A stretch of DNA of 22,984 bases, taken from IMG/VR virus record IMGVR_UViG_3300002293_000042, one strand, 5' to 3'. Source of the stretch: a virus. Position 1 is the first letter of the stretch. Each line of letters starts with the position of its first letter. The translations under genes were made by a program, and so were the position numbers. The notes beneath the pieces were generated by a model. That model did no database searches, was not told the DNA's origin, and saw only the letters and a list, made by a program, of their open reading frames with translations. Positions 8,358-22,984 of this stretch are shown here, in pieces.

Positions 8358-9788
8358 ATGAAGGAAGGAAATGATGATATGGGCCTGGGTGTCTCCTTCA
8401 TCGGGGCCCGTGAAGGGTTCACTTTGAAGGAGGTCACCGATTACGCCTTAAAGGATGACAAGACCAAACATTTGATTAAGGATCCTTTTGAGCGGGTGTA
8501 TGGTGAGAAGGAGATCGTCCCACCACCATATGACCCAACCCGACTATCAATACTCTTGGAGGCCAACACCACACACTCGGCCTGTGTCCGGACGATAGCC
8601 AGTGATGTAGTCAGCCCCGGCTGGACACTTAAGGGGGAGGAGGATGCCATACAGTTGGCTGAGGAAACCATCAAGGCATTCACTGATCCACTTGATGAAA
8701 CCTTGAAGTCGGCGGTGATTGATTATCAGGCGATAGGGTACTGTGCCCTCGCAGTATCCTATGAGGACAGCGTCCCTGTGAACCTCTACCATATACCAGC
8801 CCACACTATGAGGCGGACTTACGATGACATCAGGGCCGTGCAGAAAGTCGGGGAGAAGGAGGTCTGGTTCACCCTCGCCGGTACTGATAAGAAAGTCGAC
8901 CCCGAGACGGGGAAATTCAATGATAACCTTAGTGATGAGGAGGCTGGGGATAGTATAATCTGGATTAACCGGTACAACCCCCGGAGCTACTTCTATGGAT
9001 ATCCACCTATCATTTCCGCTTTGAATAGTATTTACCTTGAACTCTCAGCCAAACGCTACAACACCATGTTCTTCAAGAATTACGGTGTACCGAGCCTCAT
9101 CGTCTCATTGATTGGGAATTTTCAGGATAAAGACCCAAACAACCCCACATATGACGTATCAGAGAAAATCAAGGAGGGAATCAAATCCACCATCATGAAC
9201 CCCCATAGTGCCATGGTCATGACAATGAAAACCACCGACAAGGACTCCATAAAATTCGATGTTAAGGAACTCGGGGGTCTGAATACAGAGGCGGGGTTCC
9301 TTAAACTCCTTGAGAGGGTGGAGGATGAAGTGCTCAGTGTCCACAAGATGCCACCCTATCGTATCGGGGTGAATCGGACTGGTAGCCTTGGTGGATCCAC
9401 CGCAGTTGAATCCAGTAGGACATACTATGAGTCTGTGATTAAGCCTTTGCAGGCCCGCCTATCCAATGCCTTGAACCATTACCTGTTCCAGCCGATTGAC
9501 CCTGACCTTAAATTAGTCTTTAACACTGTGAACCTCAGAGAATTTAAGGCTGAAGTGGATAGTGTGATTAACCTTGTGCAGGCGGGTATCCTCACGCCGG
9601 CTGAGGCCAGGGGAGTTATGAAGCAGTACTTCGACTTGGATGATGACATGGTGGGTTATGAGGCTGAGAACCTCTACCATCGTGGCGTGCCATTGGATTC
9701 CATGTCCGCCCTTAGCCTTAAACCACCATTGGAGACTGCCCGTGAACTCCTAAGGGAGCCGGAGGAACAGGAAGGCGGGCGGGGATAA
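8358..9788 (+). CDS. Portal protein
   Basis: 476 aa after terL. Segments LYHIPAHTM, YFYGYPPI, FFKNYGVP, VHKMPPYRIG and GILTPAEAR are typical of portals. Confidence 0.9.
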   Translation: MKEGNDDMGLGVSFIGAREGFTLKEVTDYALKDDKTKHLIKDPFERVYGEKEIVPPPYDPTRLSILLEANTTHSACVRTIASDVVSPGWTLKGEEDAIQLAEETIKAFTDPLDETLKSAVIDYQAIGYCALAVSYEDSVPVNLYHIPAHTMRRTYDDIRAVQKVGEKEVWFTLAGTDKKVDPETGKFNDNLSDEEAGDSIIWINRYNPRSYFYGYPPIISALNSIYLELSAKRYNTMFFKNYGVPSLIVSLIGNFQDKDPNNPTYDVSEKIKEGIKSTIMNPHSAMVMTMKTTDKDSIKFDVKELGGLNTEAGFLKLLERVEDEVLSVHKMPPYRIGVNRTGSLGGSTAVESSRTYYESVIKPLQARLSNALNHYLFQPIDPDLKLVFNTVNLREFKAEVDSVINLVQAGILTPAEARGVMKQYFDLDDDMVGYEAENLYHRGVPLDSMSALSLKPPLETARELLREPEEQEGGRG

Positions 9789-9803
9789 GATGGTGGGGAT
9801 GAT

Positions 9804-11450
9804 ATGAGGGTGGATAAACGAGTACGGGGCAAACTACTCATCGAGGAACAAAGACTACTCGCCCGTCTGAGCCATGAATTCTACATGAACCTCCGGCCCC
9901 TGCAGGATCAACTGTGCCTCCGTATCATGGAAGTTATGAAACAATTCAGGGGCCCAGTCAACGAGGATGTACAATTATATGATGAGGCCCTCCACCTACT
10001 TGACATCGTGTTTCAGGATCACCTCAACCACTTACCCATCAAACTCATCGAATCATATGCACGGATCAACGTGGAGGTGGACCGGTTCCATGAATGGAGT
10101 AAACAATTAATCACCGGGGAGGAGCCATTAAGGAGCACGTTTAAGGAGTCCCGGCCCCCGGAACCCGAGGTGATGGTGATGGGTGAACCTGAATCCTTCT
10201 ACCTGATTGAGGAGGATGAACTCCCACCCTATGACCCGTCACAGTTGAAACCCACTGAGATCGGAGGGGTGACCGGTGTCCCATACGCCCGACCGGTAAT
10301 TGTGGCGGGGGAATTCGATCCACGGGCCAAAAGGTACATGGAGGAACTGGCACTCCGGAAGTGTGTCACCCTGAACAGTGCACAGAAGGAACCAGTCAAA
10401 AAAGTACTCATCTACAGTTTCGAGAAGGCCGAACCACTCAGGAATACTATGAGGCGTATGGAGAAACACATCCACCACCTTAAATTCTGGCAGATCGAAC
10501 GGATAGCACGCACAGAAACACATCAAGTCTTCAACTGGAGTAAGTATAAGGAGTATCAGGATGACCCATTCATTGAATCGGTGCAGTGGTTGACTGTGGG
10601 GGATAATCGGGTGAGGAGGAGTCACCGCCTATGCCATTTAGTTGTGAGGCGTAAGGGCGAACCATTCCCCAACGGCCTGTTATACCCCCATGACCCAAAG
10701 GGGCCTGCAAGGGAGGTTATCCAGTGCCGATGCACCATCGTCCCCTACATCATCGCCCCTAGTGTGGCCCCGGCTCCACGTACAAGGACACCCACACAGA
10801 TGGCCCCGGAGTCTAACTGGAAACCACCGGTGGAGGAGAAACCAGCCAAATCCTTCAAACTCCCACGAACCTACCTGAAGAAACCCCCACGGGCCACAAG
10901 CAAATCATCCCCTCCACTCGTTTACGCTGACAACCCCAAAGATTACCCCAGATTCTTAGGGGTGTTCATGCAGTACCCTGAGGACACCCGCAACCTCATC
11001 AATGAAATCCACATCACAAGGGACATGTCATCGAGTGTTGACTTGGAGGCCATGAAACTCCGGGTGGGCCTGTATGATGGCTGGGAGTCCGACCTCCACT
11101 ACCTCATCGGATACATAATAGACCACACAGCAGACCCCGACACAGGGGCCCATGGTGATGTTGATCCATTGGAATTATACAGGTCGGGGGCGAGTATGCT
11201 CTGGGGTGTGAAGGATCGGCGGACACCCCCATACCTTAACAGTGGAGTGGTCAGGGAAGCGGAGGAGTACCTCCCAATTAAAAGGTACGTTGACGGCAAA
11301 CTCGACACAACTGAAATCCTACCCACCCTTCATATGAAACTCCACAGTGATGACTTCAAGGAATTCATCAAGGGATGCCCTGAATCCTTTAATCTCCTCT
11401 CACGTGTCCTTGGCCCCGGGTTGCTGGATTCTGTCGAGAACAATAAATGA
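9804..11450 (+). CDS. Minor head protein of the MuF / SPP1 gp7 family with a Pro-rich linker and an approximately 175-aa C-terminal extension
   Basis: ERIARTET...WLTVGDNRVRRSH...GEPFPNGLLYPHDP...IQCRC is the MuF signature, and the gene follows the portal. Confidence 0.88.
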   Translation: MRVDKRVRGKLLIEEQRLLARLSHEFYMNLRPLQDQLCLRIMEVMKQFRGPVNEDVQLYDEALHLLDIVFQDHLNHLPIKLIESYARINVEVDRFHEWSKQLITGEEPLRSTFKESRPPEPEVMVMGEPESFYLIEEDELPPYDPSQLKPTEIGGVTGVPYARPVIVAGEFDPRAKRYMEELALRKCVTLNSAQKEPVKKVLIYSFEKAEPLRNTMRRMEKHIHHLKFWQIERIARTETHQVFNWSKYKEYQDDPFIESVQWLTVGDNRVRRSHRLCHLVVRRKGEPFPNGLLYPHDPKGPAREVIQCRCTIVPYIIAPSVAPAPRTRTPTQMAPESNWKPPVEEKPAKSFKLPRTYLKKPPRATSKSSPPLVYADNPKDYPRFLGVFMQYPEDTRNLINEIHITRDMSSSVDLEAMKLRVGLYDGWESDLHYLIGYIIDHTADPDTGAHGDVDPLELYRSGASMLWGVKDRRTPPYLNSGVVREAEEYLPIKRYVDGKLDTTEILPTLHMKLHSDDFKEFIKGCPESFNLLSRVLGPGLLDSVENNK

Positions 11451-11476
11451 AAAAGAAACAGTGGTGTTAACCTATT

Positions 11477-11785
11477 ATGAAGTTATCTGAACTCATATCC
11501 ATGGAGTCCCTTAAGCGTAAGGGGATGGAATCAGCACCGGTGAGGATCCCCGATCATTACCGTGGTGGCACGGTGGAGTTCCTTGATGATGACTTGCAGG
11601 GGGTTTCGAATCCCTTACTGGCCTCTACTTATAAGGTGACAAGTCGGGATGCGAGGAGGGAACTGTTCCTACCATACAGGAACAACTATGTCCTTGAACT
11701 CATTCACATGGATGACAGGACACTCAAGTACACGTATAATTCTGATGCTACGAGGCTGATTAAACTGGAAATCATAAGGGGATGA
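11477..11785 (+). CDS. Hypothetical protein, 102 aa
   Basis: Fills the gap between MuF and the protease, with GTGGTG upstream. No recognisable motif. Confidence 0.65.
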   Translation: MKLSELISMESLKRKGMESAPVRIPDHYRGGTVEFLDDDLQGVSNPLLASTYKVTSRDARRELFLPYRNNYVLELIHMDDRTLKYTYNSDATRLIKLEIIRG

Positions 11786-11789
11786 TACT

Positions 11790-13148
11790 ATGCCATGGAA
11801 ACTGAACAGGAAGGCGTATAATCATGCCATGAAATTGATTGAGGAGGGTAAGATTAATGAAGGAGAATGGAGTGCCCCCAACCTCTCTGACTTTAAGGAC
11901 ATCACGGAATACAGTTTATTCCACCTTGCAGTTGACCCCGAACGTGACCCGGAAACCGCCGGGGCCTACGCCTACCCCTATGGGAAGGATGGTGAAGTTT
12001 ACATTCAAGCGTTGAGGAGCATCAGATCCTACTCGGCGGGGGCCCGGGGAGCAGAAAAGAATCAGGAAATCTTTGATGCCAGTGGCCGACTCCTCGACAA
12101 GATCGCATTATTGACAGGTAAGGGTATAGATGAATTAACCGTGCAGGTACCGAGGGCGATTAAGGAGACATTCACGGTTAAATCAGAGGAACAGCGAATG
12201 ATAACAGGGCCTGTACTTATACCAGATTACAGGGACTGTCAAGCTCCACAAGGGGAGAGGCCACTAACAGCTGATGAGATAACTGAGAAGATGATGACCT
12301 TCTATGACTTCAAGGTATTCGATGTCAAGCATAATGCCATCAGGGAGGGGGATTTCACATCTGTAGCTGAACTTGTGGAGTCATGGCAACTGAAGGAGGA
12401 CTGCAGGGGTTACCCGAGGGGTACGTGGATTGTTACGGCGAAAGTCACTGATGATGAGGTCTGGGGGGCCATCAGGAGGGGTGAACTCACCGGGTTCAGC
12501 ATCACAGCCATACCCCGGGCCAGTGCTAAGGAGTTATTCAACCTCAAAGATGAGGTGGGTGGTGGTGTCAGGAATGTTCCACTCGCAGAACTCGATGACC
12601 CTGTGATCTGCACGATCTCACTAACTGATAAGCCATGCGTCTTCGACGCCAAGATACTGAGTATGAAGGAGGATGGTAATGTGAAGGATGAAAAGAATGT
12701 TTTGAAGAAGATTTATGAGGTGCTCACTGAGTACTTCACCGGGAAGGAGGATTCGGTGGCCGTGGAGGAACCAGCACCAGTAGAGGAACCGGCCCCCATA
12801 GAGGCCAGAGAAGAACCCAGCGACTCATTCAATGATATCCTCTCAAAACTCGACGATGCACTCGAAAAAATCAACCGGCTCGAAGAGAAACTCAACGAAA
12901 CAATCAACGAAATAGAAGCCACACAGGAGGACACCAACACTGAGGCCGAGGAAGTGGCCACAGAAGAACCAGCGGAGGAACCCGAACCAGAAACAGCAGA
13001 GGAACCTGAAGTGGTGGGGGAGGAGGTTACAACCAAGGAAACAAAACCCGAGAAGAAATCAGTACCCCCAGATGAAGCCACAGTGAAAGAGAAATTAGAC
13101 CTCATGGAGTACCTCGGCAGAGACCCCACAGGGGTGCCCAAAAAATAA
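11790..13148 (+). CDS. Prohead protease (XkdF-like) with an extra N-terminal domain and an acidic scaffold-like C-terminus
   Basis: EQRMITGPVLIPD...DVKH...LVESW...RGTW...DDEVWGAIRRGELTGFSI matches XkdF-type putative serine proteases. Glu/Pro-rich coiled-coil tail. Position just before the MCP gene. Confidence 0.85.
   Translation: MPWKLNRKAYNHAMKLIEEGKINEGEWSAPNLSDFKDITEYSLFHLAVDPERDPETAGAYAYPYGKDGEVYIQALRSIRSYSAGARGAEKNQEIFDASGRLLDKIALLTGKGIDELTVQVPRAIKETFTVKSEEQRMITGPVLIPDYRDCQAPQGERPLTADEITEKMMTFYDFKVFDVKHNAIREGDFTSVAELVESWQLKEDCRGYPRGTWIVTAKVTDDEVWGAIRRGELTGFSITAIPRASAKELFNLKDEVGGGVRNVPLAELDDPVICTISLTDKPCVFDAKILSMKEDGNVKDEKNVLKKIYEVLTEYFTGKEDSVAVEEPAPVEEPAPIEAREEPSDSFNDILSKLDDALEKINRLEEKLNETINEIEATQEDTNTEAEEVATEEPAEEPEPETAEEPEVVGEEVTTKETKPEKKSVPPDEATVKEKLDLMEYLGRDPTGVPKK
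12762..12797 (+). repeat. Two degenerate 18-bp in-frame tandem repeats encoding VEEPAP-VEEPAP
   Basis: gtggaggaaccagcacca / gtagaggaaccggccccc. Confidence 0.7.
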
Positions 13149-13180
13149 GTCACAATCCCCAATAAAAAAAAAAATTTGAG

Positions 13181-14248
13181 GTGATAAGTATGGATGATAT
13201 GCTTGAAATGATTGAAACAACAATGAAGCAGATAACAGTCGCCGACCTCGGTGCAAGCGTCCTTAACCCTGAAAGGTACGCCCAGTACGTTAAGGGACTG
13301 ATGAGGCCCGAATCGATCCTCTCAGATATCAGGTACACGCCGATGGAGAGCCAGAGGACACTCATCGACCGGGTCGTTGCACCTGACCGTGTCCTCAGGA
13401 GACTCAGTGAAGGCACAATGGCAGGGGAATCCGCACCAACCTTCAAGCAGGTGCAGATGGATGCCGTCCCATTAATCGGTTACATGCCAATCTATGACCC
13501 CGCCCTGAGGAGGAACCTTGAGGGTGGTAACTTCGAATCAACCCTCGTCGACCTGATGTCAGGGGCCACAAGGAGGGATATTGAGGAGTTCCTTGTATTC
13601 AGCCGTGTCAGTGCAAGTGACACCAGTGGGGATATCCTCCTCGGCTCTGAAGGATTCATAAGACAGTCAATCATGGCCTACGGTGACTCCACAGACGGGA
13701 ACGTGGATAACAACATCCTCTATGGTGAAAACACAGCATCCGGTGAAGACCCTGACTTCGACCCTGAAATCGACAAGGACAACGTAACAGCACTCTTCGA
13801 CAGTATGCTTAAGGCCCTACCCTCTGAGTACACTGGAATGCCAAGTGACTTCAAATTCTACGTACCCTTTGAGGTAGCGGATGCGTACAGGGATTACCTC
13901 GCATCAAGGAACACCCTGGCCGGGGATGAAATGCTAATGAGCGGTGAACTCAAACCATACAAGGGAGTCCCCGTCAAGTACTGCCCAGTCCTTGATAAGG
14001 AATTCAATAACTTTGATGCTGTTATTGACTTATTCCAGAAGCCAGTTATCCTTACCCAGCCAAGCAACCTGATCTTCGGCCTGTTCCAGGAGGTTAAGGT
14101 TGAGGTTGCCCGTGAACCCAAATACGCAAGGACTGACTTCGTCATCCAGACAGAGCCAGCGAGTGGTGTGGAGGTACCTGAGGCCTGTGTTGTGGCCCTC
14201 CCGGATGCGGATAAGAATGATGCGGATGCACTGTGGAGCACAACATAA
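13181..14248 (+). CDS. Major capsid protein, probably HK97 fold (likely true start ATG 13190)
   Basis: Follows the protease-scaffold. Strong RBS GAGGTGA at 13178-13184. About 350 aa, with GASVLNPERY, ALRRNLEGGNFESTL and GVPVKY segments typical of MCPs. Followed by a terminator. Confidence 0.88.
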   Translation: MISMDDMLEMIETTMKQITVADLGASVLNPERYAQYVKGLMRPESILSDIRYTPMESQRTLIDRVVAPDRVLRRLSEGTMAGESAPTFKQVQMDAVPLIGYMPIYDPALRRNLEGGNFESTLVDLMSGATRRDIEEFLVFSRVSASDTSGDILLGSEGFIRQSIMAYGDSTDGNVDNNILYGENTASGEDPDFDPEIDKDNVTALFDSMLKALPSEYTGMPSDFKFYVPFEVADAYRDYLASRNTLAGDEMLMSGELKPYKGVPVKYCPVLDKEFNNFDAVIDLFQKPVILTQPSNLIFGLFQEVKVEVAREPKYARTDFVIQTEPASGVEVPEACVVALPDADKNDADALWSTT

Positions 14249-14249
14249 A

Positions 14250-14290
14250 CACCCCCCCCAATCCTCCACCCCCACTTATTTTTATTTTAT
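14250..14290 (+). terminator. C-rich plus oligo-T terminator after the MCP gene
   Basis: CCCCACTTATTTTTATTTTAT at 14270-14290. Confidence 0.6.
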
Positions 14291-14364
14291 CATATGAGGG
14301 GGTGTGTTGTATGGGAAAATCTTTTTGATGATTCTCCATTACCATGGATGGGAGGGTGGTGTTC

Positions 14365-14448
14365 ATGTTCGAGGATCCTTTAACTGAATTAACATTCACG
14401 ATAATCCTAATCATGCTCATATTAACAATGATTTGGTTGATTTTATGA
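14365..14448 (+). CDS. 27-aa single-pass membrane peptide, not in the ORF track
   Basis: My translation: MFEDPLTELTFTIILIMLILTMIWLIL. RBS GGAGGGTGGTG at 14351-14361. Its TGA overlaps the ATG at 14445 of the next gene (ATGA). An in-frame ATG at 14344 would give 34 aa. Confidence 0.55.
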   Translation: MFEDPLTELTFTIILIMLILTMIWLIL

Positions 14449-14831
14449 TAAGCACTGATCTACTAATCCGGTTCACTGGTGTGGAGCCCGAGACCTTCGG
14501 TTTCAAGGATCAGGAGGAGCTTGAGGGGTTCCTTAATGAAATCATAAGTATGGCTTCGGATATGATAAGGGAGTACACCGGGCAGGTATTCCCTGAGGCC
14601 GTGCCCAGCATAGTCAGGAATTGCTGTCTACGACTTGCGGGGAATATTATCGCACAGGGGATAGCCAGGCAGGATATCGAGTTATTAAGATCGGGGGATT
14701 ACAGTAATGAATTACTCAGGAGTGATGTGTTCACGAAGGACATCAAGGATGACCTGAAGCAATTCATCCAGTCAGATTCAACCGGATCAGGGACTCCAAG
14801 ATTCTACACAATAACAGGGGATGAGGAGTGA
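14445..14831 (+). CDS. Head-tail adaptor/connector (SPP1 gp15 / HK97 gp6-like); track start TTG 14433
   Basis: First structural gene after MCP. Helical pattern LNEIISMASDMIREYTG...VP..VRNCCLRLA resembles adaptors. Confidence 0.65.
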   Translation: MISTDLLIRFTGVEPETFGFKDQEELEGFLNEIISMASDMIREYTGQVFPEAVPSIVRNCCLRLAGNIIAQGIARQDIELLRSGDYSNELLRSDVFTKDIKDDLKQFIQSDSTGSGTPRFYTITGDEE

Positions 14832-15312
14832 ATCCACATTGACAATCAAGATTGACATCACCGGCTATAAGATGGATGGTTTGGAGGGTAAGATCAGGAA
14901 GTGGGCTGAGGCAGGTACTCAGTTATCGGTGAGGCACTTTGAATCCCTCCTTGTTAAGTACACTCCGGCCCGTAAGGGTCGTGGAGGCGGGGGACAACTG
15001 AGGGCGTCACTCCATTTCAGGAAACAGGGCCGACTGCAATTCAAATCCACCCCCAAGTATTACTTCACCTACCTTGATAAGGGTACGGGGGTGTATGGTC
15101 GTGGGTCACCCATTGTGCCGGTGCGTAAGAAGGCACTGGCATGGCATCCGCAGAACCCCCTGCGGGCATGTGGCCGTGGCACCGGTTGTATAGTCCGGAA
15201 ATCAGTGAGGGGTATACGACCATTCCGGATAGTCGATAAGGCGACACGTGGATTGCAGAGGGACATTGAACGGATATATGAGATGGTGGCGGAGAAGATA
15301 ATTGGAGGATAG
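14821..15312 (+). CDS. HK97 gp10-like neck / tail-completion protein
   Basis: TP-(x)-G-x-LRAS, Y..YLDKGTG, I-x-P-x-x-KKAL and V-x-G-x-x-P motifs. Basic. Typical position. Confidence 0.7.
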   Translation: MRSESTLTIKIDITGYKMDGLEGKIRKWAEAGTQLSVRHFESLLVKYTPARKGRGGGGQLRASLHFRKQGRLQFKSTPKYYFTYLDKGTGVYGRGSPIVPVRKKALAWHPQNPLRACGRGTGCIVRKSVRGIRPFRIVDKATRGLQRDIERIYEMVAEKIIGG

Positions 15313-15769
15313 GATTTGTATGGGTGCAACTGAACCATTAAGTGAAGCAATAATCATGATCCCCGAGACGATCAAGGAGATCATCGAATCCAATGATAAC
15401 CCCTATGGTCGTATCGCTCTCGGTCAGGTACTGCAGGGGCCAGTGAAGAAGACGCCGATACTCTGGATCATCCCTGAGAGGGTGTCGTTGAGGGATGAGG
15501 AGATTCACATGCTACTCTATGATTATAGTGTGACCCTCGCCCATGTTGATAAAACCCGTCGGATGCAGGAGGAACCCATGCTCGCCCCCTCAACCCTCAG
15601 CACAGTCTTCCAGTTAATCAAGGATGGTATCCGTGAAAGACACCCCATGAGGATGTTCATTCAGGACATTCACATGGAGTCCCTTGAATGCCTTGGTACT
15701 GAGTCTGAGGATAGGGCGGTGATCACATATGAGATGCGTGTGAAATTCCTTATCAGAACAACCCCCTAA
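15302..15769 (+). CDS. Probable tail terminator protein (likely start ATG 15320)
   Basis: About 150 aa directly upstream of the tail tube gene. Assigned mainly by position and size. GGAGGA at 15304-15309 fits ATG 15320. Confidence 0.5.
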   Translation: MEDRICMGATEPLSEAIIMIPETIKEIIESNDNPYGRIALGQVLQGPVKKTPILWIIPERVSLRDEEIHMLLYDYSVTLAHVDKTRRMQEEPMLAPSTLSTVFQLIKDGIRERHPMRMFIQDIHMESLECLGTESEDRAVITYEMRVKFLIRTTP

Positions 15770-15812
15770 CATGGGGGGATAGAGTGATTATAAAGTTTTG
15801 AGGTGAATTATT

Positions 15813-16826
15813 ATGGGAGAACGGAAAGTTGGATTGAAGAAGGAGGCAAGTTTTGGTGTGGCCCAGTCAACGGTGTCATACTATGCTGAACTCAGCAGTT
15901 TCAACCCGAAAATTGAAGGGGAGAACCTTGTACGTGAGACACTATCAGCGAGGGCCCCCAAAATAGTACGGCCCGGCCAGTACAGTCAGAGCATCGACTT
16001 TGAGGGGTACACTGACCTTGAACGCATCGGCCACCTACTCTACGGGTGCCTTGGCGAGTACATTTACACAGAAGGGACAGGGGACCAACCGAACACTCAT
16101 GAGATATACGGGGGGAACACACGGTTACTGCCATCATTCACGATGTTCGCCGGTTACGATGAATTCAACCGTAAATACGCGGGGACAATCATCAGCAACG
16201 TTAAACTGGACATGAAGAAAGAAATGATAACATTCAGCGGTAAAGCAGTCGCTAAGACCTCTGAGGACATCACATCATTACCCTCTGAGCCATCACTACC
16301 CACGGGCTTCGTTGACACTCCACTCGCATTCTATGAGGCCACAGTGAAGATTGATGATGCTGTCCTCCCGGCCCCCGCACAGAACCTGACGGTGGAGATT
16401 GAGAATGAAATCAAAACTGACCTTGCCTTCGGGTTGGGTTCCAGGTTCATGCAGATTCAACCACCTGCACAGTCACGTACAGTTACCCTTGAACTTGACA
16501 CAGCGATACTTAATGACCAGTGGAACAGTATAATCAAGAAGGCGGAGTTCGGATCCTCCTCAGCCACAAGCCCGGGTTACAGTGTAGGGGAGGTGTCAGC
16601 TGAAGTCACATTAACGCCGATGGATAATTCGGGTAATGAGATGACAATTAAAATGCCATCCGCCACCCTCGAGGTGGATTACGGTATCAAAGGCACAGAT
16701 GTTATAGATCTGAAGTTCAGTATGAGTGGATTGCAGAAGGGTACAGTGACTAAGGTGGGTGGCGATACACTCACAACAGACATCTACATACTACTCAAGA
16801 ACCACATGAGCAACCTGTCAACATAA
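15813..16826 (+). CDS. Major tail (tube) protein
   Basis: RBS GAGGTGA. N-terminal VGLKKEASFG motif, LPSFTM, beta-rich composition. Followed by a terminator and the chaperone/TMP genes. Confidence 0.8.
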   Translation: MGERKVGLKKEASFGVAQSTVSYYAELSSFNPKIEGENLVRETLSARAPKIVRPGQYSQSIDFEGYTDLERIGHLLYGCLGEYIYTEGTGDQPNTHEIYGGNTRLLPSFTMFAGYDEFNRKYAGTIISNVKLDMKKEMITFSGKAVAKTSEDITSLPSEPSLPTGFVDTPLAFYEATVKIDDAVLPAPAQNLTVEIENEIKTDLAFGLGSRFMQIQPPAQSRTVTLELDTAILNDQWNSIIKKAEFGSSSATSPGYSVGEVSAEVTLTPMDNSGNEMTIKMPSATLEVDYGIKGTDVIDLKFSMSGLQKGTVTKVGGDTLTTDIYILLKNHMSNLST

Positions 16827-16850
16827 CCGCACCCCACCTATTTTTTTTGT
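16827..16850 (+). terminator. C-rich plus T8 terminator after the tail tube gene
   Basis: CCCCACCTATTTTTTTT at 16832-16848. Confidence 0.65.
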
Positions 16851-16880
16851 AGAGAAGAACACGGGGGAGTTGATTTTTTT

Positions 16881-17177
16881 ATGATGCTAAAAACACTTAT
16901 CAGGCGTAAGGACATTAAAGCTCAGCTTTTGGAGAAGGAGAAGCTATTCGTTAAGGATAATCCGTTTTTAAGGTTTGAGGCGGTGTTTGTTTCTGGTTGG
17001 AGGAGTCACTGGACTTGGATCGTGAACATCATCCGTGCAGTCACCACAGTTGAGGGTGATGTACAATCCCTACAGGGGACACTCACAGAGGTGCAGGAGG
17101 CACTGGATGACCTCACAAGTAGGGTTGAGGCGATAGAACAGCAACTGAACCCCGAACCACCAGAAGGCGGGGAATAA
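16881..17177 (+). CDS. Hypothetical protein with a C-terminal coiled coil
   Basis: RBS GGGGGAG. Heptads VEGDVQSLQGTLTEVQEALDDLTSRVEAIEQQL. Confidence 0.7.
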   Translation: MMLKTLIRRKDIKAQLLEKEKLFVKDNPFLRFEAVFVSGWRSHWTWIVNIIRAVTTVEGDVQSLQGTLTEVQEALDDLTSRVEAIEQQLNPEPPEGGE

Positions 17178-17194
17178 ATCATATACTAATTGAG

Positions 17195-17614
17195 GTGATG
17201 ATTACCATGGTACTTGATAAACTGAGCATACTGAAAGGAGTGGAGAAAGTAGAAACCGTGCACATCGAATCCCTTGGCGGTGAAGTCAAAATAAGGCCCC
17301 TCACCAGTGAGGAATGGATTCAGATCAGTATGGAGGAGCAGAAGGGACTCGGCGAGGTGGAGGTGAATGTGGGTTCCCTAAGGCAGACTGATGGGACACT
17401 GAAGATTAACCTCCAGAAACAGGCTGAGGCCTCCTTCAACGCCAAAGTCAAAGCCGTGAGCCTCGCATTATCATGTGATGGTGAGGAATGGGAGCCGGGG
17501 GAGGTTAAGCAGTTACTACCCGGTGTGATCGATGAAATCTATGCTAAAGTAATGGATATCAGTGGGGTGAATGTGGAGGAATCAGAATTAGACCAATTTC
17601 ATCCGGAGCGATGA
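17195..17614 (+). CDS. Tail assembly chaperone (lambda gpG analogue; likely start 17207)
   Basis: Lies between tail tube and TMP. GGEVKIRPLT..E motif, acidic, ends EIYAKVMDISG. Confidence 0.8.
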   Translation: MMITMVLDKLSILKGVEKVETVHIESLGGEVKIRPLTSEEWIQISMEEQKGLGEVEVNVGSLRQTDGTLKINLQKQAEASFNAKVKAVSLALSCDGEEWEPGEVKQLLPGVIDEIYAKVMDISGVNVEESELDQFHPER

Positions 17615-17771
17615 CGGGAAAGAAATACTCATCCTTGATGATTTAGGTTATAAGTTGAGCGAAACACAGAAGGATTTAACCCCCCTCCAGAGGGCCTTCC
17701 TCATTAAGGGCCACGCATACCTCATGGAGGAGAAGAATAAGGTCTTGGATGCTGAATTAAAAAAGTATTAG
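17598..17771 (+). CDS. Start-less downstream chaperone ORF (gpT analogue), probably reached by a +1 frameshift at TTT-C (17597-17600)
   Basis: The +1 frame is open from 17592 to TAG at 17769-17771: FIRSDDGKEILILDDLGYKLSETQKDLTPLQRAFLIKGHAYLMEEKNKVLDAELKKY. It fills the gap up to the TMP start. Confidence 0.7.
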   Translation, partial: FIRSDDGKEILILDDLGYKLSETQKDLTPLQRAFLIKGHAYLMEEKNKVLDAELKKY

Positions 17772-20700
17772 GTGCGTGTTAAATTCATGAAGGTTAATGT
17801 TGAGATTGTGCTCAGGGCGGTGGATCGTGCCTCAAAGGAAGTGGGGAAACTCAGCAAATCATTTAAGGAAGTGGGGAAGGCTGGTGATTCAGCATCCAAG
17901 CAGGCCACCGGCTCCTTCAGGAACATTGACCGGGGGGCTAAGAACTCCACCAAAGCCATCAACAATGTTAACAGTTCCCTTGGGAATCTCGGTAAGGGAT
18001 TCACCTCGACTTCCCGGTCGGCGAATTCATTCACCTCCACCTTGAATAAGTCGATGCGTGATGGTTCACGTGCAGTCACCACTCTACGCACCTCCCTCAC
18101 CGGCCTCGACGCCGGCCTTAAAAGGAACTCATCAACTGTTAGGCAGACCCAATCAGCAGTCACCGGCTTTGGGAGGACAGCCATCTCAACGTTCCATCAG
18201 GTAGGGTCAACCTCAAGTGCCACCGCCCAGAGGATGGCCAGCAGTATGTCCACAGCATCACGTGAGATGAGCAACAGCCTGATGAGTGTTCAGCGGACTG
18301 CTAACCTGACAGGGGACAGTATCAGTAGACCCATCATCACAGGAACACGGCAGGCCAGCACCGGTTTCGGTAACCTCTCCCGGGTATGGTCGAACACAAC
18401 CTCCGCCCTACGCAAGGGTATTAGTAGTGTGGTGGATTCCTTTGGTAGCCTGAATGGGGCGATTGGCGGGGTTATCTCTGGATTCGGTACTCTTGAAATG
18501 GCGAGCATCGGATTTGGGGGTGCTATGAACCGTCAGCTCCTCGAGTCGTGGATGCGTATGAAGATAAGCACCGCACAGGCCCGGGAGTACTCCAAGGTTA
18601 TCAGTGAGGTGAACATGAAGTCACCTGCACCGTCCAGTTTCATCAACCAGTTACTCTCGGGGGCTGTGGTGAGGCAGACTAACCTTTCAGCAGGGGCCCT
18701 CAAGTTGCTGGGTCAGAGTGCATCTGATTACTTCGCGGCTTCACAGATGATGGGTAAGAGCGCAATTGAAACCCAGATGGACTTAATCGAGTACATCCAG
18801 ACAGGGAACACCAGCCAATTGGAAAGGGACAGTATAATTAAGAACCAGATCGATAAATTGAAGGATCAGGCCACGGTGGAGGCGAGGATCAAGGCCCTGA
18901 ACGAGGCCCTTGTGAAGGAAGGCTATAAAGGTATTAGTCAATTGGATTCGGCTAAGATTAAGTTTGAGGAGTTTAAGGGTCGAATAGAGGAGACTTTTAT
19001 TGTTATTGCTTCGAGGATGCTCCCAGTGGTGGATAAGATCCTCACAGCCTTTAATAATCTTGATAGTGCAACGGGGGGTTGGGCTTCCACTATCCTCGTG
19101 GTTTCCGGTGGTTTTATAGCTGTGGCGGGTAGTATTGGTTTCGCTTTATCCACACTGCAACCATTCACCGCATCTTTATCATCTATTACTGGTATAATTC
19201 GTGCTGGTGGTTGGGCAGGGGTATTCAGTGAACTCGGCAGTAGAATATCAATGGTCACGGGTGTTTTCAGTACTCTACGTGCCCGCATCCTCGAATCAGC
19301 CATGGCTCAGCGGTTGTTTAATGCTGAGGCGGGTGCGGGGATTATTGCAACCCTCAGGATGAGTGTGGCCTCAGGCCTCGCTGGGATTAAGAATTTGTTC
19401 CTTGCGGGGGCTACTAATCTTGTGGCTGGGGCTCAGGCCCTCCTCAATGCTGTTATGAGCATGAACCCTATCGTCCTCGTTATCATAGCGATTACTGGGC
19501 TCATCGCCGTCCTATTGTACCTCTGGAAGACTAATGAGGGTTTCCGGCAGGCAGTCATGAAACTCTGGGGTGCCTTGCAGGGACTTGGCAATTATATTAT
19601 GGGTGGTCTTAGGAAGGCTTGGGATGACTTCATGAAATCCTTGGATGGTGTGAGGAAGGCGATGGAGCCATTCATATCAGCCATTCAAGGGTCACTCACC
19701 AATGCATTCAACACACTTAAAGGTGGTGTGGATTGGGTTATCAGTGGCTTGAAAGGGTTGCTCGCCCCGGTGGGCCCCGCTGTGAGCGGATTCCTAAGGA
19801 TGGCCTATGCTATTGTGTTCACAGGGGACGGGGCCAGGATGCTCATAGATAAACTCGGCCCACTCGGTTATGTCCTCGCATGGATCATCAACCCCATCAG
19901 GACACTGTTCTTCGCATTCCAACAGTTAAAGTTGGCGTGGGATCAGTGGGCGAATAGTGTGGAGGGCCGTAAAGTACTAAATGACTTAGGAGTCGCCTTT
20001 AATCAGTTAAAGGAGGCTCTCAGACAACTCGGCGAGGCATTCCAGCCAGTCATCGATGCATTGAAGGATGCATGGGGTGAGTTCAGTAAGATATGGAGTC
20101 CAGCAAATGAGACGGGTAAAGCATTGAAGAAGGCGGGGGATGGTGCTAAGGAAGTCGGTGATAAAAGTAAAGGTGCACAGGGCCCCTTAGCCATATTTGT
20201 TGAAGCGATCAAGGTGGTTGCTTGGATACTGCAGAATGTGGTTATCCCCGCACTCAGGATATTCATCGGTATCATCACATTCCTCACACCCATCATACGA
20301 ACAATAGCCTCAGCTTTCGCCATGCTCATCGGTGCCCTCACATGGCTCGGGGGGATAATCTGGCAGATCATATCAACCCTATTCGCATTACAATCAGCAT
20401 TCACCTCCGCCTTCGGCGGGGCCCTCGCATCCGCCTTCCAGTTCATCAGCGGTATCATCTCATTCCCCGGGCAGGTCCTTGGGATACTCTGGCAGGTGAT
20501 CACGGGGCAGATCTCATGGTCACAGGCCATCCAAAGGTTGATGAGCACCACAGCGATGCGGATGGTGATGGGATTCATAAGGTGGCTCATGGGACTCCCC
20601 GGCAGAGTATTCAGCATACTCTTGCAAGTCATAAGTCGGGTCACTGGATTCAGTCCAAGGGCCCTCAGCAGTGCCGGTAAGGTAGGGGCTAATATCATTA

Positions 20701-22400
20701 AGGGCCTGGTTCAGAAGGTCAGCGAGGCACCCGGGAAGGTCTGGAGTGAGATGCTCAAGATCGGGGAGAGGATCATGCAGGCCGGCAGTGACCTCTACAA
20801 TAAGGCCAAAGAGGTCGGTAAGAAAATCCTCAACGGACTACTCGGTGCCCTCGGGATTAAATCACCCGGATACATGTACTATGCGGTTAGCGGGGAACTA
20901 ACAAGGATAAGTAAGGAGTTTAAGAACCGTACCGGTGAGGTTAAGGGGGCTGTGGAGGGTTACGGTGAAGCCATGGTTAACTCCATGCGTGGTTCAGTGA
21001 AACTACCCGTACCCGAAGCGAAAGTCGACGTCAGTGGTGCAGTGTCAGGTGTTAATGAGACCGTGAGTAATGTGGCTGGGGGCCTTAAAGGAGTCACCAG
21101 CATATCCGCTGATGCAATGAAAGGAGTCATCAACACCACACAGGAAGGTATTAAGGAGTGGACTGGCCTCTACAAGACCGGAACAGGTAACATCCAGTCA
21201 GTCATGGATTCAGGCCTCAAAAAGGTCATCGAGGTTAATGCTAAGGGCCAAGTGAAAAATCAGGCCATCCTTAAATCAGGCACTGATGGTATGGTTAAAA
21301 CCACCAAATCCGGTTTAGAATCCATTAAACGATCATGGAATGATATGAAGGGTAAGGTCGTGGCCTCCGCTAACGCCACGAAGACTCAGGTCACCAGTCA
21401 CATATCCACATTGGGGGGTAATATTAAACGGTTCTACAGGTTGGTTCAGAATCCCGGCGGTGCAGGTGGCCCCGCTGGGCCCGGCCCCATAGGTGCGGGG
21501 TTCATGAGGGGTTTGCGTGTCAGCGTACCCTGTTCTACATGCAGTGCCCCACCCTTACCTTTAACTTCAACTAATGGTGAGGCATTAACCCGACCCTTAC
21601 CTGAGATGCAGAGGAGAACAGTACGGATTAAAAGGATAGTTGAGGAGTACATGAAATTCTTGAAGGATCCAAGATTTGGATTCGGATGGGATTACAGTGG
21701 TGAATGGATTCCATGGGTTAAGGAGAAGATTGGTTCTTGGCCTGTTAATTTCCTTCCCGGTTTGAAGGTTAAGGTGAAAGACTTCGCCACATGGCCACCA
21801 CGGGGCCTCGCCGGTAACCTCATAGCATTCAGGTCATTAATGTCAGCGATTATTGGCCGTACAAGGTATGCTTTCTATTATGGTAGCAGTGGCTTGTCAC
21901 CGGCGGAGTTAATCCGGCGGGGAGCCTTTAATTGTTATGATGGGGCCCGTATAGTCACCGCTTACGCCCGTGCATTCGGTTTACCAGCCAGTATCCGCTG
22001 TGGCTTATCATGGAACGGTATAAGGCATTGTGCGGCGAATGTCGGTGGTATGTGGTTCGATACAACTGCATTCCAGCATGGATACGGTTGGACAAGTCCG
22101 GCTGTGAAGGGTTACGGTGGAGGGGCCTATGTGGAGTCAGCACTCAAAACCCATGCCCGTGCAGGTGCCGGTGCGGTGGTGAGTCGGGATGTCGGGGTGT
22201 CACTGGATCATAACGTCACCCTCGAGGTTAAAGTTAAGGGTGATGGAGTCAGTGCATCTGAAGTTAAATCCGCCTTGACTGATAAGGGTGTGATTGATGG
22301 TATCAGGCGGGGCCTTGTGGAGGATGAGGGATTCAAGTCAAGGTTGTTGAGGGTGATTGGTGAGGCTATTAGCCGGGAGGAGCGGTACTATGGATTGTAA
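17772..22400 (+). CDS. Tape measure protein with a C-terminal transglutaminase-like (Cys-His-Asp) domain (likely start ATG 17787)
   Basis: 1542 aa after the chaperones. VEIVLRAVDRAS N-terminus and the classic LNAVMSMNPIVLVIIAITGLIAVLLYLWKTNEGFRQAV motif. Periodic W/F amphipathic repeats. NCYD...H...WFD near the C-terminus. Confidence 0.93.
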   Translation: MRVKFMKVNVEIVLRAVDRASKEVGKLSKSFKEVGKAGDSASKQATGSFRNIDRGAKNSTKAINNVNSSLGNLGKGFTSTSRSANSFTSTLNKSMRDGSRAVTTLRTSLTGLDAGLKRNSSTVRQTQSAVTGFGRTAISTFHQVGSTSSATAQRMASSMSTASREMSNSLMSVQRTANLTGDSISRPIITGTRQASTGFGNLSRVWSNTTSALRKGISSVVDSFGSLNGAIGGVISGFGTLEMASIGFGGAMNRQLLESWMRMKISTAQAREYSKVISEVNMKSPAPSSFINQLLSGAVVRQTNLSAGALKLLGQSASDYFAASQMMGKSAIETQMDLIEYIQTGNTSQLERDSIIKNQIDKLKDQATVEARIKALNEALVKEGYKGISQLDSAKIKFEEFKGRIEETFIVIASRMLPVVDKILTAFNNLDSATGGWASTILVVSGGFIAVAGSIGFALSTLQPFTASLSSITGIIRAGGWAGVFSELGSRISMVTGVFSTLRARILESAMAQRLFNAEAGAGIIATLRMSVASGLAGIKNLFLAGATNLVAGAQALLNAVMSMNPIVLVIIAITGLIAVLLYLWKTNEGFRQAVMKLWGALQGLGNYIMGGLRKAWDDFMKSLDGVRKAMEPFISAIQGSLTNAFNTLKGGVDWVISGLKGLLAPVGPAVSGFLRMAYAIVFTGDGARMLIDKLGPLGYVLAWIINPIRTLFFAFQQLKLAWDQWANSVEGRKVLNDLGVAFNQLKEALRQLGEAFQPVIDALKDAWGEFSKIWSPANETGKALKKAGDGAKEVGDKSKGAQGPLAIFVEAIKVVAWILQNVVIPALRIFIGIITFLTPIIRTIASAFAMLIGALTWLGGIIWQIISTLFALQSAFTSAFGGALASAFQFISGIISFPGQVLGILWQVITGQISWSQAIQRLMSTTAMRMVMGFIRWLMGLPGRVFSILLQVISRVTGFSPRALSSAGKVGANIIKGLVQKVSEAPGKVWSEMLKIGERIMQAGSDLYNKAKEVGKKILNGLLGALGIKSPGYMYYAVSGELTRISKEFKNRTGEVKGAVEGYGEAMVNSMRGSVKLPVPEAKVDVSGAVSGVNETVSNVAGGLKGVTSISADAMKGVINTTQEGIKEWTGLYKTGTGNIQSVMDSGLKKVIEVNAKGQVKNQAILKSGTDGMVKTTKSGLESIKRSWNDMKGKVVASANATKTQVTSHISTLGGNIKRFYRLVQNPGGAGGPAGPGPIGAGFMRGLRVSVPCSTCSAPPLPLTSTNGEALTRPLPEMQRRTVRIKRIVEEYMKFLKDPRFGFGWDYSGEWIPWVKEKIGSWPVNFLPGLKVKVKDFATWPPRGLAGNLIAFRSLMSAIIGRTRYAFYYGSSGLSPAELIRRGAFNCYDGARIVTAYARAFGLPASIRCGLSWNGIRHCAANVGGMWFDTTAFQHGYGWTSPAVKGYGGGAYVESALKTHARAGAGAVVSRDVGVSLDHNVTLEVKVKGDGVSASEVKSALTDKGVIDGIRRGLVEDEGFKSRLLRVIGEAISREERYYGL

Positions 22401-22445
22401 GTTTTTTGTGTTGAAGTTGCGTTGTGTACTCAATATTTTTTATCA
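22401..22445 (+). terminator. Possible oligo-T terminator after TMP
   Basis: T6 at 22402-22407 and a second T tract near 22436-22441. Both lie inside the 5' part of the track ORF 22357-22734. Confidence 0.35.
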
Positions 22446-22488
22446 TGCCCTCTGTGGGGGTTATGTTAAGGTCACGGGGGATGAACCA

Positions 22489-22734
22489 GTGGTTGGTGAA
22501 TGGGTGGATCAACTTGATGATAAGGGGATACTGGTCTTTAAGGGCCCATTGCCTGGTTCATTTCTTGGTGTTTCCTTTCCACCATTCCCTTTAATTATCC
22601 TTAATGAGGATGGGGGCTTGGTGGTGGAGGTCTTACTTCATGAGTACGGTCATATAAGGGCGGGGGTCAGGTCGGGTGAGGAGGAGGCTGAGTTTATTAA
22701 GGAGAAGTGCTTGTGGAGGGGTGACTTGGTATGA
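22489..22734 (+). CDS. Small HExxH zinc-metallopeptidase-like protein (ImmA/IrrE-like); likely start GTG 22489, alternatively ATG 22390
   Basis: IILNED...VLLHEYGHI...EEEAEF resembles the ImmA/IrrE I-x-x-N...HExxH...E-x-x-A pattern. GGGGG at 22476-22480 precedes GTG 22489. ATGA overlap with the next gene. Confidence 0.65.
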   Translation: MVGEWVDQLDDKGILVFKGPLPGSFLGVSFPPFPLIILNEDGGLVVEVLLHEYGHIRAGVRSGEEEAEFIKEKCLWRGDLV

Positions 22735-22984
22735 TGCAGGATATAACAGGAGGTATTAGTAGGGATGGGAACCTCCTCGGCTACGTGGACCATAAAAACC
22801 CGCTAATATTCCAAGATTCGTTTGATAGTGGGATACGGTCGGAGTGGGGTAAATGGGTGAATAGTGGGACATGGTCAGATTATATCCAATCATATAATGG
22901 GAAGCTCAGGATCCAATACACTGGAACTGGGGCGTATTATGGAGGGGTTTTTTACCCTCTACCTGCTGGTGACTGGGAGATAAG
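22731..22984 (+). CDS. 3'-truncated tail-associated protein, beta-rich or possibly lectin-like; not in the ORF track
   Basis: My translation: MMQDITGGISRDGNLLGYVDHKNPLIFQDSFDSGIRSEWGKWVNSGTWSDYIQSYNGKLRIQYTGTGAYYGGVFYPLPAGDWEI..., open to the window end. ATGA coupling with the upstream stop. Rich in W, Y and G. Confidence 0.65.
   Translation, partial: MMQDITGGISRDGNLLGYVDHKNPLIFQDSFDSGIRSEWGKWVNSGTWSDYIQSYNGKLRIQYTGTGAYYGGVFYPLPAGDWEI

Follow-up and report, generated by a model that had tools for sequence, protein, structure and literature searches.

We analyzed a 22,984-nucleotide stretch of viral DNA (IMG/VR virus record IMGVR_UViG_3300002293_000042; this whole stretch is referred to as the window) and found that its tape measure protein (TMP) carries, near the C terminus, a domain that is very probably an intact Cys-His-Asp enzyme of the transglutaminase fold. 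We establish here the fold of this domain, the invariance of its triad, its location in a TMP, its restriction to viruses of pseudomurein-walled hosts and its independence from the endolysin. On balance, we favor the view that the C-terminal TMP module serves at entry as a virion-borne pseudomurein peptidase; its substrate, the hydrolytic nature of its reaction, its place in the virion and the time at which it acts are inferred. Methanobacterium virus PhiF3 (MN737622.1), whose host is Methanothermobacter thermautotrophicus FF3, is 98.5% identical in DNA to the window where the two align (positions 9419-22889; blastn), and the C terminus of the TMP is 99.4% identical in protein sequence to its PhiF3 counterpart.

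Fold and conservation of the catalytic domain

The TMP gene and the elements of its catalytic domain are located as follows, with amino acids (aa) counted from the GTG at 17772 unless stated otherwise and conservation counted in an alignment of 167 extracted domain sequences.

17772..22400, plus strand: TMP gene, 1542 aa from GTG 17772 or 1537 aa from ATG 17787 (open reading frame [ORF] list, PHROG)
21807..22121, plus strand: transglutaminase-fold catalytic core (aa 1346-1450, model residues 70-174) with Y-x-F-Y-Y, N-C-x-D, His and D-T-T motifs
21933..21935, plus strand: catalytic Cys codon TGT, aa 1388, within AAT-TGT-TAT-GAT from 21930; conserved in 166/166
22026..22028, plus strand: catalytic His codon CAT, aa 1419, read directly in the DNA; conserved in 167/167
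22059..22061, plus strand: catalytic Asp codon GAT, aa 1430, read directly in the DNA; conserved in 167/167

A preliminary description of this DNA had proposed a transglutaminase-like triad with Cys at 21933, His at 22026 and Asp at 22059, and the codons TGT, CAT and GAT are indeed read there. The peptide strings it quoted and the Gly/Pro stretch it reported ahead of the domain (aa 1227-1243) are present in the translation. A CSTC motif that it also listed is present, but it is not conserved among the aligned homologues and was rejected as a feature.

We searched the last 325 aa of the TMP against 1.84 billion representative proteins and retrieved 227 clusters at E<=1e-3. With few exceptions, the top 150 clusters are proteins of 950-4300 aa in which the match lies at the C-terminal end, and the distance from the end of the domain to the protein C terminus in homologues has a median of 62 residues. 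The catalytic domain is in one open frame with the TMP in the window, and likewise in about 130 TMP-sized homologues. Short matches are contig-end fragments, as checked for P0029; this sequence had been considered as a stand-alone form of the domain and was rejected as a TMP fragment, being open to the contig end and continuing into TMP linker sequence.

In addition to the triad, the Asn preceding the Cys is conserved in 166/166 sequences, and two Tyr residues upstream of it hardly vary. The triad and this Asn do not vary even though identity among homologues drops to about 28-35%. The triad is thus conserved in homologous TMPs, as the interpretation in the preliminary description required, and the invariance of Cys, His, Asp and Asn across about 166 sequences at such low identity indicates selection on catalysis.

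We further investigated the domain with an AlphaFold2 model of aa 1277-1473 generated from a 34-sequence alignment. The mean pLDDT of the model was 82, with values above 90 in the core. In its topology as assigned by DSSP, Cys112 is the first residue of helix 112-125, His143 lies in strand 141-148 and Asp154 comes after strand 151-153; that is, His1419 is on the second strand after the Cys helix and Asp1430 follows the next strand. As modeled, this arrangement is the papain/transglutaminase topology. A Foldseek search of the PDB agreed with the model and with the fold that had been proposed from the sequence: the top matches were all transglutaminase-like cysteine enzymes, namely 3isr (2e-5), PeiP, PeiW, TGase, LapG, TgpA and PNGase. 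With VIA-align, the best match was the catalytic domain of PeiW (8jx4_A; Z 10.5, rmsd 2.9 Å, 103 residues), followed by PeiP (8z4f_A; Z 9.5), LapG (8.9) and TglA (8.5), the whole set falling at Z 7-10.5. The part of the model that aligns to PeiW and PeiP is residues 70-174. In a viral structure library, PeiP led the matches after the TMPs of PhiF3 and Drs3, and no bacteriophage TMP in that library matched with any confidence.

Relatives, distribution and endolysins

PeiW, from prophage psiM100, and PeiP, from phage psiM2 (MEROPS C71, PF12386; 8jx4, 8z4f), cleave the epsilon-(Ala)-Lys isopeptide bond in pseudomurein by means of a Cys-His-Asp triad and depend on reducing conditions (PMC2989375, PMC4592898). 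They have the same fold and triad as the TMP domain, share with it the Y-x-[FY]-Y-Y and N-C-x-D motifs, and are encoded by viruses of the same hosts. In other respects they differ, PeiW and PeiP being soluble egress endolysins of ~300 aa with N-terminal pseudomurein-binding repeats (PMBR), whereas the TMP domain lies near the C terminus of a 1542 aa virion protein, has neither PMBR nor the hairpin insert, and possesses an extra N-terminal subdomain.

At the sequence level, Pfam Transglut_core (PF01841) matched the window domain with 20.3 bits (E 7e-4, profile positions 21-103 of 108) and matched 8 of 12 relatives, with a best E of 8e-5. A single-sequence search of the PDB with the 325 aa C terminus yielded no match. 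A 12-sequence profile of the domain, searched against PDB sequences, returned PeiW and PeiP as the top two (E 0.03); the other matches were a sugar-transporter chain at E about 0.4, attributable to chance. The comparison with PeiW and PeiP drawn in the preliminary description is therefore borne out, as no solved structure matches better than these two enzymes and no other PDB sequence is matched meaningfully by the domain profile. Alignment of the domain with a 13-sequence Pei alignment by hhalign gave E 1.6e-4, with Cys and His aligned.

We also searched one Methanobacteriaceae genome with the domain profile and obtained six cellular proteins (25-45 bits, E 1.8e-11 to 1.9e-5). Transglut_core matched all six at 61-91 bits, PMBR were present in three and Peptidase_C71 matched four. 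By sequence profile, cellular proteins of this PMBR plus Transglut_core type (PF09373 + PF01841) are the closest relatives of the TMP domain and have the same motif set. They differ from it in length (about 210-460 aa), in that most carry PMBR, Big_5 or DUF11, and in passing the Transglut_core cut-off, which the TMP domain does not reach. In a joint alignment, the motifs Y-x-[FY]-Y-Y, N-C-x-D, His and D-x-[TS] were common to the TMP-type, Pei and cellular proteins. The Pei catalytic-region motifs Y-x-Y-Y-Y-N, I-N-C-T-D, G-H-Y and W-D-Y align with Y-x-F-Y-Y, N-C-x-D, His and D-T-T of the TMP domain, from which the C-terminal P-C-C motif of Pei is absent. The TMP type is the most compact of the three groups and has no hairpin insert between the Cys helix and the His strand.

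Because the motifs are shared by all three groups and the TMP type is the most compact, we place the TMP domain, judging from sequence, as a compact sister clade and third branch of a methanogen-specific, wall-associated subfamily rather than as a strict member of Peptidase_C71. The best explanation of the data is that the module belongs to this methanogen-specific branch together with PeiW/PeiP and the cellular PMBR-transglutaminase-like wall proteins, and it is predicted to be catalytically competent.

The six cellular transglutaminase-like genes (L006-L011) are on the metagenome-assembled genome (MAG) OY969779.1, where their partner modules vary (PMBR, Big_5, DUF11) and two pairs of genes are close neighbors, one around 449-459 kb and one around 2535-2542 kb. 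All six are candidate enzymes of pseudomurein cross-linking or remodeling, and recognition of a third branch of this transglutaminase-like family may help to assign such cellular functions.

The domain was found only in viruses and proviruses of Methanobacteriales in the data searched. Among 50,697 phage records there were only 7 matches, which represent five viruses, all of Methanobacteriales: PhiF3, Drs3, vir249, vir075 and MSTV1. PhiF3, Drs3 and MSTV1 are isolates. Of the 329 species genomes in the phylum to which the Methanobacteriaceae genome belongs, 31 had a TMP-type match (E<=1e-14); the open frames concerned nearly all span 944-3495 aa, and two matches are in short contig fragments. 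The fusion is thus widespread in viruses of Methanobacteriales, as had been suggested. PMBR are carried by 320 of the 329 genomes, so the phylum essentially corresponds to the pseudomurein methanogens; a negative set within the phylum was rejected for this reason, and a bacterial phylum served as the control, by which wall type is only incompletely separated from kinship among the viruses. In this control phylum, 0 of 267 other genomes matched even at E<=1e-3, and one contig was positive.

The positive contig (JBFXIQ010000081.1, L002; 5.6 kb) comes from a MAG labeled 'Synergistaceae bacterium' and encodes a TMP C terminus 62% identical to the window domain. Its source genome has no PMBR, and the contig is probably a mis-binned piece of a methanogen virus. 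The homologue P0008, labeled 'Candidatus Hydrothermia bacterium', may be a similar case.

The TMP of psiM2 does not have the catalytic domain; the A3 profile matched it at profile positions 182-219 only (7.5 bits), in the C-terminal tail. The domain is therefore common, not universal. Comparison with the endolysins of the same viruses showed that the endolysin of psiM2 is PeiP, that MSTV1 has a Peptidase_C71 endolysin in addition to the TMP-borne domain, and that the PhiF3 endolysin ORF27 matches Peptidase_C39_2/C39 (PF13529/PF03412) by Pfam, i.e., the PeiR type, with no C71 match. The TMP domain occurs with either endolysin class (C39 in PhiF3, C71 in MSTV1), which suggests that it has a job separate from lysis. 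Like the TMP domain, the PeiR-type endolysin is a predicted pseudomurein-cutting cysteine peptidase of the same virus, but it belongs to an unrelated papain-like family, is encoded by a separate late gene and has a role in egress.

ORF27 lies outside the window (L001:19824-20552) and carries the GenBank note 'similar to PeiW'; some of its homologues have additional pseudomurein-binding repeats. ORF27 was rejected as a Pei reference, since it is of the C39/PeiR type and not C71, and the Pei alignment was built instead from psiM2 PeiP.

Proposed role at entry and alternative readings

Outside the catalytic core, the TMP contains the following elements.

19080..20390, plus strand: region with three strongly hydrophobic stretches (aa 437-462, 554-588 and 806-873; Kyte-Doolittle scan)
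21450..21500, plus strand: Asn-Pro followed by a Gly/Pro-rich linker (aa 1227-1243; translation), from the helical ruler to the C-terminal module
21600..21806, plus strand: accessory N-terminal subdomain of the module (aa 1277-1345, model residues 1-69, pLDDT 59-90)
22191..22397, plus strand: C-terminal TMP tail (aa 1474-1542), kept among close relatives in the alignment

The hydrophobic stretches, detected with a window of 19 and a threshold of 1.6, are candidate membrane-inserting segments. In bacteriophages, the C-terminal end of the TMP contacts the tail tip complex, and the C-terminal tail of this TMP is presumed to make such a contact. The module, ~110 residues from the TMP C terminus, would occupy the tail tip and, once the tail opens, be ejected before most other parts. 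At that site it would locally sever peptide or isopeptide cross-links of pseudomurein, after which the hydrophobic middle of the TMP would reach the membrane and DNA could pass. The virus thus probably carries its own wall-opening tool into infection. Among bacteriophages, T5 (pb2) and mycobacteriophage TM4 have TMPs with wall-degrading domains. Such domains are frequent in bacteriophage TMPs, and those of the lytic transglycosylase type and the M23 peptidases of Gram-positive phages have the same architecture and presumed ejection logic as the module described here, although they adopt other folds and act on murein (PMC10194240).

Several observations weigh against this proposal. We detected no match to PMBR (PF09373) at E<=1 in the 1542 aa TMP, in line with the preliminary description, which had seen no such repeats; some Pei-like proteins are also without PMBR (PMC2989375). 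The score of the window domain is below the 23-bit gathering cut-off of Transglut_core, Peptidase_C71 (PF12386, cut-off 22 bits) gave no match at E<=1 with the window sequence, and just 2 of the 12 relatives matched PF12386, at E 0.017. The hhalign probability against Pei was 50%, and the Z-score lead of PeiW over LapG, at just 1.6, is modest. The closest sequence relatives are the cellular PMBR-transglutaminase-like proteins, which have been postulated to be cross-linkers of pseudomurein rather than cutters (PMC10117817, PMC11915815). Finally, since the psiM2 TMP does not have the domain, the domain is not essential for infecting Methanothermobacter.

The kinship with postulated cross-linkers raises the alternative that the domain is a transglutaminase, i.e., an acyl transferase rather than a hydrolase, which would covalently link the ejected TMP to pseudomurein stem peptides or re-link the wall and so anchor the DNA conduit. 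One triad serves both chemistries, and a transglutaminase inhibitor inhibits PeiW and PeiP (PMC4592898). However, PeiW and PeiP, which are the sole biochemically characterized members of the branch and the best structural matches, are hydrolases, and cross-linking by the cellular proteins is a postulate too. We know of no virus that cross-links itself to a wall, which also counts against this alternative, and we consider it quite unlikely. A more specific form, prompted by the same postulated relatives and in our judgment very unlikely, is that the transferase would staple the TMP conduit to pseudomurein stem peptides on ejection or re-link the wall around the entry site; if true, stapling would be a covalent virus-to-wall attachment step without a counterpart in bacteriophages.

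Two further readings dispense with cutting or joining the wall. In one, the domain would be a self-processing protease of tail maturation that cleaves either the TMP, e.g., in or close to the Gly/Pro linker, or a different tail protein. Bacteriophage TMPs such as lambda gpH and T5 pb2 are known to be processed at the C terminus, an NP/HP and Gly-rich linker precedes the module at the equivalent position in most, not all, of 26 aligned TMPs, and the TMP has no wall-binding repeats. This reading, however, does not account for why the domain is confined to viruses whose hosts have pseudomurein walls or why it is related specifically to wall-associated enzymes, and no bacteriophage TMP among the 50,697 records has the domain; we regard it as unlikely. 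In the other, the domain would have no catalytic activity and would plug the tail tip as a structural or wall-binding element, its fold being a remnant of its ancestry. The tail tip contact of bacteriophage TMPs and the compactness of the domain, without the hairpin insert of Pei and the cellular enzymes, are compatible with a plug, but the invariance of Cys, His, Asp and Asn is the signature of selection on catalysis and makes this reading highly improbable.

Taken as a pseudomurein peptidase used at entry, the domain is a concrete, widely conserved and testable candidate for the means by which tailed viruses pass pseudomurein at entry. Reviews of archaeal virus entry treat pseudomurein under egress only (PMC10791045), and we found no published description of a TMP-borne Pei-like domain in archaeal viruses in a search that left the methanogen-virus compendium of Medvedeva et al. 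2023 outside its scope. The catalytic module has ~105 residues (~200 with the accessory subdomain), has no binding repeats and comes from a virus of a thermophile; it could join PeiW, PeiP and PeiR as a reagent for lysis of methanogens or against methanogens of the rumen and gut.

The accessory subdomain has a conserved GW-D-x-S...W motif, in which W1306 is kept in 137 of 167 sequences. We found no PeiW equivalent, structural match or fold assignment for it, the structural matches covering model residues 65-185 only. In many homologues, not in the window virus, a Cys-x(n)-Cys-Tyr pair precedes this subdomain.

The tape measure gene and its surroundings

The ORF at 17772-22400 is the TMP gene of a siphovirus-type tail, as identified by gene order and PHROG matches. 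It matched the PHROG tape-measure families phrog_1272 (5e-30) and phrog_58 (1e-26), and in the 5'-to-3' direction it follows genes for a capsid protein, a head-tail adaptor, the probable tail tube protein and the tail assembly chaperone, the last two of which are located as follows.

15813..16826, plus strand: probable tail tube protein gene (phrog_290, tail, 'minor tail protein', 2.2e-21; phrog_35581, 5.6e-39)
17195..17614, plus strand: tail assembly chaperone gene, directly upstream of the TMP gene (phrog_344, 3.6e-6)

The gene at 15813..16826 occupies the same position as the tube gene of MSTV1, and both MSTV1 and a 62.6 kb viral contig have their TMP homologues at the corresponding place in the gene order. 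The PhiF3 counterpart of the TMP ORF is ORF21, a "hypothetical protein" in GenBank, and public records name these TMPs hypothetical, "prominin" or plain tape measure. The alignment with PhiF3 does not extend to window positions 22890-22984, the final ~95 bases (blastn).

The residue numbers C1388, H1419 and D1430 given in the preliminary description hold when counted from GTG 17772, as was done there, but this GTG is not the likely start. It is the first in-frame start codon and lies inside an AGGTG Shine-Dalgarno-like motif immediately 3' of a TAG stop (17769-17789). Because this AGGTG is 12 nt 5' of ATG 17787 and the PhiF3 record begins at that ATG, translation of the TMP likely starts at ATG 17787 rather than at GTG 17772. 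The residue numbers would then shift by -5, to C1383, H1414 and D1425, with nothing else altered.

The TMP homologue of the 62.6 kb viral contig (L014:8001-20705) has the same C-terminal domain and comprises 4234 aa, which, with the usual scaling of tail with TMP length, implies an exceptionally long tail.

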